Of a stretch of DNA of 64,000 bases, positions 3,518-6,661 are shown piece after piece. The first letter of the stretch is position 1, and each line of letters opens with the position of its first letter. The notes under the pieces are model-generated. The model saw nothing but the letters and a program-made list of their open reading frames with translations. It did not search any database and had not been told where the DNA came from. This DNA comes from Deltaproteobacteria bacterium (GTDB lineage Bacteria > Myxococcota_A > UBA9160 > SMWR01), in assembly GCA_032128375.1 (NCBI GenBank), contig JAQBGU010000209.1, positions 32,501 to 96,500 on the forward strand. Reading direction: 5' to 3'. The translations under genes and the position numbers were made by a program.

Positions 3518-4843
3518 TTGAGATCGCATGGACCCAGCTGGCTATCGTTTGCGCTCTTCGTGGCAACTTGCTGGCATTGCGATCTTGCGCTGGGCCAGCT
3601 CGATGCTCCCGACGCGCCGCGCGTGCCTTCCATCCTTCGGGTCGGAACCAGCGGTGACTATCCACCGTTTAGCAGCGCTTCTCGCGAAGAACCCGCCAAG
3701 TACATTGGATTCGACATATCGGTGGCTCGCGCCTACGCGGCGGAGCGCGGGCTCGAATTGCGATTCGTGCGATTTTTGTGGCACGAGTTGTCCCATTCGC
3801 TGGCTGCCAACAGGTTCGACATCGCGATGTCGGGGGTAACGATCCGGCCCGAGCGGACTGCGCTCGGGCGCTTCAGTGTCACCGTCGCCGAAACCGGTGC
3901 GGTGGTGCTCGGCAGACCCAAAGGGCGTTTTCGCAGTGTCGGCGACTTCAATCGTCTGACGATTCGAATCGGCGTCAACGCTGGGGGCCATCTCGAACGA
4001 GTCGCCACCGAGAGATTCGCGATCGCGACAGTGATCGCGATTCCTGACAACACCGCGATCATGGAGACGTTGCTCGCAGGCAATCTCGACGCGGCGGTCA
4101 CCGACACGCTGGAGGCACAGCACTGGCTCGAGGGAACCGATGACATCGACCTGCATGGCCCGTTCACGACCGATCGCAAGGCCTACCTCGTGCGAGCCGA
4201 TCGGCCTGGACTCGCCGCCGACCTCGACGCCTGGCTGCTCGAGCGAGAAGCCGACGGCAGTTTGCAGGCACTGCGACACGAGCATTTCGGCCTTGGATAT
4301 TCCCGCAGTTTCACCCCGCTCGATTCGTTGTTGGCCGCCATGGATGAACGATTGTCACTGATGCCGCTGGTGGCGGTCGCGAAGCGTGCGGCGGGGATGC
4401 CACTCGAAGTTCCGGAGCGCGAGGGGGTCGTTCTCGATGCGGCGGTCGAAAGTGCGCGCATCGCAGCCGAACGATTCGGCGCGGCGACCCCCGATGCGCT
4501 GGTAGTGAAGCGCCTGTTTCGCGCGCAGATGGAAGCCGCCAAAGAGGTCCAGTGGAGCGCGATTCAGGATCCCCTCTACGCGCCACCCGATCCGATACCC
4601 AACCTCGAGACCGAGCTGCGGCCCGCACTATTGCGAATCGGCGATCGGATTGGCCAGCTACTGGTGAGCTTGCCGGCGGGACTTGCCGGCGACGCGGTTC
4701 GCGCTGCCGCTCTCGACCAACTGCGAACGCCCCGGCTATCCGAAGCTTCGAAGTGGGCGATCGCCGATGCGATCACCGCCCTCTCTTCTGCAAAAATTTC
4801 TGGCAAAACTGCTGCAAAAACTGGCGCAAAAACGGAGCAGTAG
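3518..4843 (+). CDS. Exported cyclohexadienyl dehydratase (PheC-like, family-3 solute-binding fold) fused to an AroQ chorismate mutase
   Basis: LRVGTSGDYPPFS, FDIAMSGVT, VTDTLEA in the N-half; ERLSLMPLVAVAK...PEREGVVL...AQMEAAKEVQ...LRPAL in the C-half; signal-like N-terminus. Start codon uncertain. Confidence 0.8.
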   Translation: MRSHGPSWLSFALFVATCWHCDLALGQLDAPDAPRVPSILRVGTSGDYPPFSSASREEPAKYIGFDISVARAYAAERGLELRFVRFLWHELSHSLAANRFDIAMSGVTIRPERTALGRFSVTVAETGAVVLGRPKGRFRSVGDFNRLTIRIGVNAGGHLERVATERFAIATVIAIPDNTAIMETLLAGNLDAAVTDTLEAQHWLEGTDDIDLHGPFTTDRKAYLVRADRPGLAADLDAWLLEREADGSLQALRHEHFGLGYSRSFTPLDSLLAAMDERLSLMPLVAVAKRAAGMPLEVPEREGVVLDAAVESARIAAERFGAATPDALVVKRLFRAQMEAAKEVQWSAIQDPLYAPPDPIPNLETELRPALLRIGDRIGQLLVSLPAGLAGDAVRAAALDQLRTPRLSEASKWAIADAITALSSAKISGKTAAKTGAKTEQ

Positions 4844-4886
4844 AAGCTGGCCTCGGAGCGCACGCGAGTGTCGGTGGAAAAAGGCG

Positions 4887-5618
4887 TCAGCCCTTCTTCT
4901 TCAGTTCCTCGTCGATCAATGCCTTGAACGAATCCAGCGGCTGGTTTCCCGACAAGTACCGACCATTGATGAAGAAGGCCGGTGTGCCGGTGACTCCCAA
5001 CGCGCTCGCGGAGCTCTTGTCGGCATCGATGCGCGCCTTCACTTTCGCACCCGTGAGATCCGCTTTGAACTTGTCGACGTCGAGTCCGATCTGTTTCGCA
5101 TAGACGAGATAATTCGCTTCACTCATCTCGCGCTGATTCTCGAAGATCTTGTCGTGCATCTCCCAGAATTTGCCCTGTTGGTGGGCAGCCTCAGATGCCT
5201 GATGGGCGGCCAGAGCCTTCGAATGGATCGAAAGCGGCAAGTGCTTGAACGCGACGCGAACCTTGCCCGCGTATTGCTCTAGAACCTTCTCGAGAGTCGG
5301 ACCGACTCTCTGGCAGTAAGGTCATTGAAAGTCGGAGTACTCGACGACAGTGACCACCGCGTTGGCGGCGCCCTTGGCCGGCGCGCTCCCGACCTCGACG
5401 TCGTAGACCTTGCTGGGATCGGGGCGACGAGAGGGCGACGGGGCCTCGGCTCGAGCCGCCGGTTGTGCAGCCGCGGTCTGAACGGCCGTTTTGAGATTTG
5501 AGAGTTCGGTCGCACCGCGGTCGATCGAGCCTGCGATGAGGTAGCTCCCACCCAGCAGCGATCCACCTAGAATCAATGCCGCTGCGATCGGCCCTGTTAC
5601 TGACGAAGCTTGTGCCAT
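4887..5618 (-). CDS. DsbA/thioredoxin-fold oxidoreductase, selenoprotein (UxxC; Sec at TGA 5322-5324)
   Basis: Reading through TGA gives VVEYSDFQ-U-PYCQRVGPTLEKVLEQYAGKVRVAFKHLPLSIH...GVTGTPAFFING, joining ORFs 5322..5768 and 4887..5240 in one frame. N-terminal TM anchor; GAGGGG RBS before ATG 5618. Confidence 0.9.
5292..5310 (-). promoter_or_regulatory. Putative bacterial SECIS hairpin
   Basis: mRNA GAGAGUCGG-U-CCGACUCUC is a perfect inverted repeat beginning 11 nt after the in-frame UGA. Confidence 0.75.
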
Positions 5619-5698
5619 TGATATGACCCCCTCGGCGCTTGAATAGCTTATAGCGGCCTCCGAATCACGCAGCTTAACCCAACAATGCTGGAATTCGT

Positions 5699-6661
5699 TC
5701 AATAATAGGTCGAACGCGCGCGATGGCGCGGGTGCGCTTTCATCTCCGGCGACTGCCCGCGTGTCCAAAGCGCGTAATCGAGTTGCTGTGCAGTTGCGTC
5801 AATGCCAGCGTCGCGAAGCAGCCCCACGCAGCGCTCTACTGCGTGGACGGCGGCCGCACGGATTTCGATTTCCTGCTGCGAGCCGGCCTCCAGGCGCTGC
5901 TCGCCGTCGATCCGCTTCGCGAGCTCAGGCTCGTACACGAGCACGCCCAGGCGCCGGAGCACGTGCGGGACCAGATTATCGGCGAAGATCGTCAGCTGAT
6001 CCAGATCGCGAAACTCCCCGTATCCCTTGCCATCGAACACCGCAGCAAGGTCGGCCGAAGTCAACTGCGCGCGCTTGAAAAACGGCACTTCGAGTCCGTC
6101 GTAGTGGGAAACATCGCGGTATAGCGGCATCTCGGCCAACAGCTCCGCGAGACGAGCGGCCGAACCGTCGGCGGCGGTTATCGGACCGGTTGGGTCGCCG
6201 TCGAAGTGTTCGGACAGAAAGTGCCCCATGTCGTTGAGCGCACGCGCAAACAAGCCCATCAGCTCTGCAACTTCGGGGACGGCGATTTCTTGGCCGATAA
6301 TGCGCGCACAGTCTGCCGCGCTGAGGCCCGCTAGCTGCTTGGCGTCGAGCGCGCCTTTGTCTTCCCACAGCTCCTTCAGCGAGGTCGCCACCGTGAAATA
6401 CCCCGAAAGCCCGGGGCGTTTGGCGAGATACGGGAAGTAGCCGGAACCAAAGTTGATCGCGTCGAGACACAGAATGAACGCAACCGTCGCGTCGGGCTCC
6501 CCCACATAGTGATGTGCTGGGTTGATCTGCGGCGGCGGTGGCCCACCGGACATCTCGCTCGCGAACGCTTCGAGCGCGTGCGCATCAATTCGCACCCAGC
6601 GCGCTCGGTCGACTACAGCCTCGCAGCCGGAGCGAATCTTCTGGAAGAATTCGGCGCTCAC
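5699..6661 (-). CDS. Queuosine salvage family protein (DUF2419/Qng1-like N-glycosylase/hydrolase)
   Basis: LDAINFGSG, FFKRAQL..ADL, LTIFADNLVPHVLR, EIEIRA, LDYALW, C-terminal HRARSTYY. Confidence 0.88.
   Translation of the reverse strand: MSAEFFQKIRSGCEAVVDRARWVRIDAHALEAFASEMSGGPPPPQINPAHHYVGEPDATVAFILCLDAINFGSGYFPYLAKRPGLSGYFTVATSLKELWEDKGALDAKQLAGLSAADCARIIGQEIAVPEVAELMGLFARALNDMGHFLSEHFDGDPTGPITAADGSAARLAELLAEMPLYRDVSHYDGLEVPFFKRAQLTSADLAAVFDGKGYGEFRDLDQLTIFADNLVPHVLRRLGVLVYEPELAKRIDGEQRLEAGSQQEIEIRAAAVHAVERCVGLLRDAGIDATAQQLDYALWTRGQSPEMKAHPRHRARSTYY

Follow-up and report, generated by a model that had tools for sequence, protein, structure and literature searches.

Does the TGA codon that interrupts a DsbA-like gene in a deltaproteobacterial genome end translation there, or is it read as selenocysteine (Sec)? 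The gene lies on the minus strand of contig JAQBGU010000209.1 of the Deltaproteobacteria bacterium assembly GCA_032128375.1 (genome G000; 6.2 Mb, 249 contigs, 91% complete), within a 64 kb stretch that was analysed as a whole and is called the window below. Its coding sequence, 5618..4887 (−), contains exactly one in-frame TGA before the stop, at codon 99 (5324..5322), and a listing of open reading frames (ORFs) under translation table 11 splits it into two pieces, 5322..5768 and 4887..5240, as the original prediction had observed. That prediction placed the TGA on the first Cys of a thioredoxin motif, which the minus strand bears out (EYSDFQ-TGA-PYC), and had the frame running on into a DsbA C-terminus with a cis-Pro GTP, in agreement with the Pfam domains that we found and with residues G211-T212-P213. 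We conclude that the two ‘hypothetical’ ORFs are almost certainly one exported, membrane-anchored disulfide-exchange selenoenzyme that was missed in ORF calling, and that UGA-99 is, judging from sequence comparison, very probably decoded as Sec.

A six-frame search of 61 related genomes gave matches in all 61, and we used the 41 full-length orthologous loci (L022-L062), which hold orthologues equal in length to the read-through product and sharing its start Met (MAQ.SS...). At the column of codon 99, five of these 41 have TGA and the other 36 have TGC or TGT. Relatives do, then, share the TGA: besides the window itself, it is found in orthologues from the same genus (79% identity), the same family (68%) and two other families of the order (53% and 49%). 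The TGA of genome G018 is a terminal stop, and the aligned codon-99 position there is TGC. The Sec forms L022-L024 and their nearest Cys forms L025-L027 share flanking genes, which encode a queuosine-salvage protein (Q_salvage), a YegS-like lipid kinase and an SBP_bac_3/chorismate-mutase (CM_2) fusion, so Sec and Cys alternate at one orthologous locus. In a quick maximum-likelihood tree, with support from the Shimodaira–Hasegawa-like approximate likelihood ratio test (SH-aLRT), L022, L023 and L024 form one Sec group (SH-aLRT 95) that is sister to the Cys clade L025-L027 (support 88), and L052 and L053 form another (support 88). The tree requires at least two Sec/Cys changes, of which only one is forced by well-supported branches.

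The TGA form is also found far outside this order. A scan of species genomes for codons reading D-F-Q-TGA-P-[FY]-C, made with no hairpin criterion, matched at least 122 stretches. Among the 80 distinct loci that we fetched (L063-L142), five were chance matches (L075, L084, L091, L117 and L128) and 75 were homologues, so there are at least 75; the metagenome-assembled genomes (MAGs) that hold them are labelled Chloroflexota/Anaerolineae, Myxococcota, Desulfobacterota, Acidobacteriota, Planctomycetota and others. Other assembled data agree with the window. Independently assembled contigs of three runs (X1-X3) have no differences to the gene, and these runs may be the source of the DNA. A contig of a fourth run from the same study (X4) comes from a diverged strain: over 5139-5618 it shows 16 differences along with one 3-nt insertion, none of them in the TGA or in the hairpin that follows it. 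The assembled contigs of all four runs keep the TGA, and it is not an assembly error.

The genes selA, selB, selC and selD, which had been proposed as a check on Sec insertion, were all found in G000. The tRNA-Sec scores 68.7 bits, above the Rfam cut-off, and is called tRNA-SeC(tca) by ARAGORN, while selB, on contig C74 (290.9 bits), selA (510.8 bits) and selD (334 bits) all exceed their family cut-offs; selA is above its cut-off in 53 of the 61 related genomes, including all five with the TGA form. The selD gene itself holds one in-frame TGA, and its product (PAGG-U-ARK; G000:C140:3308-4234 (+), in L018) is a likely selenoprotein, as are a glutathione peroxidase (VNVASQ-U-GLT; PF00255, 132 bits; G000:C135:6978-7490 (−), L188) and a ResA-like protein with the motif WAxxUGC (G000:C35:6465-7607 (+), L187; NF041054, 244 bits, cut-off 300). 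Each of these three UGAs is followed, 14-19 nt downstream, by a perfect stem with a GGU[C/U] loop, a shared hairpin style that fits one SelB recognising all these UGAs of G000.

The hairpin downstream of UGA-99

A perfect inverted repeat 11 nt after the UGA had been part of the original prediction. The repeat and its spacing hold: a perfect 9+1+9 repeat, GAGAGTCGG-T-CCGACTCTC, lies at 5310..5292 (−) and begins exactly 11 nt past the TGA. The 1-nt loop does not, because such a loop cannot form, and the repeat folds with a loop of 3 to 5 nt instead (Table 1). Lower stems like the one predicted for the window were also predicted for L023, L024, L052 and L053, but in registers that differ. Perfect inverted repeats of at least 9 bp with a spacer of 1-5 nt are rare: the window has seven, and 20 first-order Markov simulations gave 2.85 on average. 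It is the comparison with relatives that makes this hairpin more than a chance occurrence.

For that comparison, pairs were counted between bases 15-22 and bases 26-33, numbered from the T of the TGA. All five Sec orthologues form eight of eight pairs in the same register, and the 36 Cys orthologues average 4.5 pairs and never exceed six; even the five Cys forms that encode an identical RVGPTL peptide reach just five or six. The stem of the Sec forms is complete because of otherwise rare Arg codons, AGA or AGG in five of five Sec forms as compared with CGN in 35 of 36 Cys forms. AGA pairs with a Thr codon ACT and AGG with ACC, a compensatory exchange of A-U for G-C in which both changes fall on synonymous third positions.

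We found the same pairing in a wider set of 26 Sec forms from several phyla, picked by the loop GGTC at a fixed offset and not by the stem. In this set 93.8% of 208 cells are paired, as against 27-60% in controls with the partner shifted 1-3 columns, and three of the eight pairs change on both sides; pair 18-30, for example, is GC in 17 sequences, AU in five, CG in one, GU in one and another combination in two. Compensatory changes in the stem, another check proposed at the outset, were thus found both as AGA/ACT versus AGG/ACC and as the two-sided changes at three pairs. The loop GGUC is invariant in the set, which GGTC itself defined. Together these forms outline a near-invariant candidate Sec insertion sequence (SECIS), (A/G)G(A/G)GUCGGUCCGAC(U/C)C(U/C), that lies 11 nt after the UGA and is common to Myxococcota, Acidobacteriota, Planctomycetota and others. 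From such sequence comparison, we regard the hairpin after UGA-99 as a convincing SECIS.

Among the 75 homologues we distinguished three hairpin styles, which differ by phylum and all carry GGU in the apical loop. The first, 11 nt after the UGA as in the gene studied here, occurs in Myxococcota, Acidobacteriota and Planctomycetota; the second, with two hairpins, occurs in Desulfobacterota, and the third in Chloroflexota. Three styles serving one active site could serve the study of SECIS/SelB co-evolution.

Two side observations concern the same elements. In X1 and X3, short contigs of diverged organisms match the gene only over 5292-5342, with seven differences in 51 nt, as would be expected if no other part of the gene were as conserved as the TGA-plus-hairpin stretch. 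A MAG labelled Myxococcales bacterium (SHYY01000058.1; L067/L068) holds two Sec DsbA-like domains 630 nt apart in the same orientation, each with its own TGA and the same hairpin style; they are either a tandem pair or a two-domain selenoprotein.

Selenocysteine insertion and its alternatives

The comparative evidence suggests that the hairpin 11 nt after UGA-99 would be bound during translation by SelB carrying Sec-tRNA(Sec), and that Sec would as a consequence be inserted in place of termination. The product, of about 243 residues and about 26 kDa, would be tethered by its N-terminal hydrophobic helix and face the cell envelope. Sec would replace the N-terminal, solvent-exposed nucleophile of the CxxC motif, so that the enzyme would cycle between selenolate/thiol and selenenylsulfide states, exchanging with cysteines of exported proteins.

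The interruption could instead mark a pseudogene, in which a TGC or TGT codon of a Cys-DsbA gene was turned to TGA by a nonsense mutation or by a sequencing or assembly error and the hairpin is coincidental. One base change would be enough, Cys occupies the position in 36 of the 41 orthologues, and table-11 ORF calling does split the gene. We nevertheless consider decay of the gene very improbable, since the TGA recurs in five orthologues (49-100% identity) and in at least 75 homologues of other phyla, the frame is open and conserved past it, the hairpin with its compensatory change is confined to TGA forms, and the contigs of four runs agree. Another possibility is that UGA-99 is a true or leaky stop, which would yield a 98-residue anchored stub and maybe low near-cognate read-through (Trp or Cys), with the hairpin as a pause or regulatory element. 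Termination at a UGA is weak when C comes next, and a hairpin placed after a stop can favour read-through; the UGA here does precede C, and Sec insertion rests on comparison. Yet a stub would lack the catalytic domain, a domain that is under purifying selection (36 homologues, 57-71% identity, many invariant columns). The UGA coincides exactly with the redox-active Cys, as is typical of Sec, G000 has a complete Sec machinery, and the hairpin is of the style that follows the selD and glutathione peroxidase UGAs of the same genome. A stop, strict or leaky, therefore seems to us every bit as improbable as a pseudogene.

The inverted repeat might also be a by-product of coding for R-V-G-P-T-L with no role in recoding, in which case Sec insertion, if any, would use another element. 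RVxPTL is kept in Cys forms too, so the DNA is under protein constraint. That explanation leaves aside the Cys forms with the identical RVGPTL peptide, which fall short of a full stem and use CGN for Arg, as well as the rare AGA/AGG codons that complete it in every Sec form and the synonymous nature of the AGA/ACT versus AGG/ACC covariation, and we hold it to be the least probable of the three.

Several further observations weigh against Sec insertion directed by this hairpin. Because the hairpin overlaps codons of the conserved peptide, its conservation is due in part to constraint on the protein. Folding of the 66-nt region is energetically unexceptional for DNA of 62% G+C (z = −0.83, with 40 of 200 shuffles as stable), and since the energy is not significant we have not used it as evidence. 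An Rfam scan of 5100-5500 with E up to 10 returned no SECIS family, and gave chance matches to mir-H3, RAGATH-25 and Plastid-ycf3. Within the set of 26 Sec forms, rows L096 and L119 are in a shifted register and contribute many of the unpaired cells, and shuffle statistics of the set overstate the case because its members are related and loop-selected. Finally, among 12 runs, no RNA run containing the stretch was listed. A scan of 4600-5900 for promoters and terminators found none. The features of the gene, with UGA-99 read as Sec, are collected in Table 1.

Table 1. Positions in the window of the gene with UGA-99 and of its predicted elements
Feature	Position	Strand	Remarks
Coding sequence of putative selenoprotein	5618..4887	−	243 codons plus TGA stop at 4889..4887; uninterrupted with TGA read as U at codon 99
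Shine-Dalgarno-like GAGGGGG	5633..5627	−	8 nt before ATG 5618..5616; read from sequence
UGA codon 99, very probably Sec	5324..5322	−	First position of U-P-Y-C redox motif, residues 99-102; context EYSDFQ-U-PYC
Candidate SECIS, upper stem-loop	5310..5292	−	8-bp stem with GUC loop or, equivalently, 7 bp with GGUCC; within R-V-G-P-T-L codons
Candidate SECIS, whole region	5324..5283	−	Lower stem: UGA and following bases pair 3′ of the hairpin; minimum-free-energy prediction only
N-terminal hydrophobic helix, about residues 9-32	5594..5523	−	Membrane anchor or uncleaved signal
Catalytic DsbA/Thioredoxin_4 domain, residues 80-237	5381..4908	−	Pfam, AlphaFold2, Foldseek
G211-T212-P213, cis-Pro loop facing the active site	4988..4980	−	Aligned to G-T-P of chain 4pwo_A

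Fold, redox partners and other UGA-containing genes

Over residues 80-237, across the TGA, the protein matches PF13462 (2.5e-30) and PF01323 (4.5e-28), the latter with 98.8 bits against a cut-off of 25.6 and over profile positions 1-190 of 191. In an AlphaFold2 model, for which 36 aligned sequences were used, the predicted local distance difference test score (pLDDT) exceeds 90 over about residues 70-244. The model places strands at 89-95, 120-126, 214-217 and 220-223, inserted helices at 135-207 (pLDDT >90), and a helix at 100-103/106-115 that begins directly after U99; as modelled, with a thioredoxin fold and an inserted alpha-helical domain, the protein is of the DsbA structural class. The best Foldseek matches are to TsdA (4pwo/7unn), followed by Wolbachia alpha-DsbA2, a Silicibacter oxidoreductase, BdbD and ScsC, the top matches being DsbA-type chains. 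The G-T-P loop is invariant among the 36 aligned homologues, and the cis state of its peptide bond is assigned by alignment only. Upstream of the catalytic domain, an Ala/Pro-rich linker leads to the N-terminal helix, which the model extends over residues 9-50 at low confidence. Orthologues have a hydrophobic N-terminal segment too, and some distant Sec forms have a lipobox instead. No lipobox Cys was found in the protein studied here: residues 1-98 contain no Cys, and with it the lipoprotein signal of the NCBIfam model NF041057 is missing.

The direction of catalysis is the weakest part of our account, and our confidence in it is much lower than in Sec decoding. The original prediction spoke of a DsbA-like oxidoreductase, and the DsbA domain and fold support that enzyme class; the further step to a DsbA-like oxidase goes beyond the evidence. 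Neither DsbB (PF02600) nor VKOR (PF07884) had a match in this 91%-complete genome, and thus neither the classical DsbA-DsbB pathway nor a DsbA-VKOR pathway was recovered there. Both negatives rest on an incomplete assembly, and G001, of the same genus, does have a DsbB, by a different DsbA paralogue, which counts against reading much into them. G000 has one DsbD_TM/CcdA gene, on contig C87 and unlinked to the gene studied here. Across the relatives, DsbB occurs in 10 of the 61 genomes and VKOR in four, compared with protein matches in all 61, and the DsbB genes are found no more than a few hundred bases from a different DsbA paralogue that matches the studied protein weakly (53-96 bits; G001:C210, G034:C190, G028:C292, G060:C110, G044:C253 and G030:C9). 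From these counts and from the position of DsbB beside another paralogue, the orthologue group is independent of recognisable DsbB/VKOR, and the classical DsbA-DsbB pair appears to form a module of its own, with a patchy distribution in the order. Because the C-P-[FY]-C motif lacks His, as in TsdA, no DsbB or VKOR was found and a CcdA/DsbD-type reductant is present, the sequences make a reductase/isomerase-like or general exchange role somewhat more likely than that of a classical DsbA-DsbB oxidase.

We considered the gene neighbourhood as a functional clue and rejected it, as the neighbours are conserved no further than the closest clade and point to no redox partner. The convergent neighbour in the window, at 3518-4843 (+), encodes a 441-residue fusion of PF00497 with a PF01817 type II chorismate mutase (28.5 bits, barely above the cut-off), and this fusion adjoins the gene in the closest relatives too.

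Additional in-frame TGA codons were observed in G000. A 503-residue product with a weak match to PF18566 linalool dehydratase/isomerase (G000:C20:10506-12014 (−), L186) has one in the context KVWPL-U-LSG, followed 11 nt downstream by a hairpin with a GGUC loop that may be there by chance. FG-GAP/UnbV_ASPIC proteins with one in-frame TGA are encoded at C143:14077-16437 (−) (L189/L191) and C217:13097-16639 (−) (L190), in the contexts NEDDI-U-MDL and GADL-U-SSF, and each TGA is again followed by a hairpin with a GGUC loop. Of the 20 matches listed from 31 related genomes, 10 have a TGA (relatives L192-L202). The TGA stands at the same column in six genomes (46-100% identity), each with the hairpin GAACGTCGGTCGACGTTC, and four distant paralogues have Cys at that column. 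No NCBIfam model matched the TGA-containing proteins. The terms FG-GAP and ASPIC are absent from the available portion of a 2026 selenoproteome review (PMC13188914), and a limited literature search found no link. Judging by their sequences, these proteins may be an uncatalogued selenoprotein family.

Relation to known systems

The kind of selenoprotein described here is already known. UxxC selenoproteins termed ‘DsbA-like’ (nine sequences) and ‘DsbG-like’ (one sequence) were reported from the Sargasso Sea in 2005 by Zhang, Fomenko and Gladyshev (PMC1088965), and in 2006 Zhang et al. listed DsbA-like selenoproteins in the myxobacterium Anaeromyxobacter dehalogenans, Desulfovibrio desulfuricans and Desulfotomaculum reducens (PMC1794560). 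The 2026 review names a ‘DsbA-like protein form 1’ (PF01323, UxxC) and a ‘DsbG-like protein’ (NF041057, UxxC) (PMC13188914). The protein studied here falls within the definition of DsbA-like form 1, with PF01323 above its cut-off and a U-x-x-C motif with Sec first. As far as the accessible descriptions go, it also shares the widespread Cys homologues and a SECIS immediately after the UGA that has G in its apical loop. In the 2005 paper the DsbA-like set is linked to COG2761 (PMC1088965). By contrast, and comparing by description, the protein of G000 is membrane-anchored and of the Thioredoxin_4/TsdA type. COG2761 is the FrnE type. UxxC DsbA-like and DsbG-like selenoproteins having been catalogued since 2005, our result is an annotation correction. 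What the original prediction called a hidden selenoprotein is hidden in the sense that ORF callers do not see it, and the Sec reading stands; the kind of protein is not new, and knowledge of selenoproteins is unchanged in kind.

Among NCBIfam models the protein matches NF041057 (Rcas_1661 family thioredoxin-like (seleno)lipoprotein) best, with E 2.7e-37 over profile positions 46-246 of 247, and this model describes an exported thioredoxin-like protein with the same UxxC position. The studied protein differs in having no lipobox and in scoring 128.6 bits, below the curated cut-off of 190; L023, L024, L052 and L053 score 102-116 bits. Only one of 22 sampled Sec homologues passes this cut-off, and the 12 with the hairpin style studied here score 95-128 bits. 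By these sequence scores the protein belongs to a subgroup neighbouring NF041057 and is not a member, and the subgroup probably escapes this NCBI selenoprotein model because it scores below 190 bits. The cut-off is a likely reason why pipelines would miss the Sec codon across a subgroup of exported DsbA-type selenoproteins. A joint reading, which we put forward tentatively and with more doubt than belief, would make the gene part of a distinct, multi-phylum, envelope TsdA-like selenoprotein subfamily outside the NCBI model, possibly acting as a selenium-dependent isomerase or reductase, and not as an oxidase, in sediment bacteria without DsbB or VKOR. The sharing of its SECIS among phyla would then mean either that gene and SECIS spread together horizontally, or that they go back to one old Sec form that was turned repeatedly to Cys. 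The syntenic alternation of Sec and Cys at the nucleophile offers a natural experiment on what selenium brings to an envelope disulfide catalyst, a question of particular interest where no DsbB or VKOR was found, and the coding-embedded hairpin is a clean case of covariation at synonymous sites.

The SECIS of the Escherichia coli fdhF type is a stem-loop directly after the UGA, with an upper hairpin from 11 nt and a small apical loop with conserved G and U. The candidate element after UGA-99 resembles it in its direct position, its start at 11 nt and its small loop with G and U, and differs in being unrelated in sequence and in showing no evident bulged U in its perfect stem. As for the protein, ScsC and BdbD (PDB 4gxz, 4xvw and 3eu3) are of the same Thioredoxin_4-type envelope fold class, with a catalytic domain of similar length; in sequence they are less similar (E 1e-13 to 1e-15), and their residue is Cys, not Sec. 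The partner of ScsC is the reductant ScsB and that of BdbD is the oxidant BdbC, so this fold is compatible with either direction of reaction and does not fix it.

The closest solved protein is TsdA of Corynebacterium diphtheriae (PDB 4PWO and 7UNN; 4PWO was entered as ‘DsbA’), both by sequence (E 1e-22) and in a Foldseek comparison of folds (E 1.3e-12, with 171 columns at 34% identity). According to its description, TsdA has a CPFC motif and a T248-P249 cis-Pro loop, reduces insulin in vitro and can substitute for the oxidase MdbA (PMC9974433). The same text notes that TsdA lacks the His found in the CPHC/CGHC motifs of DsbA, MdbA and protein disulfide isomerases, a residue thought to raise the redox potential (PMC9974433). 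The protein of G000 shares with it the EFSDF-x-C-P-F-C context, the G-T-P cis-Pro loop and the motif without His; TsdA differs in being actinobacterial and in carrying Cys at the position where the studied protein very probably has Sec.

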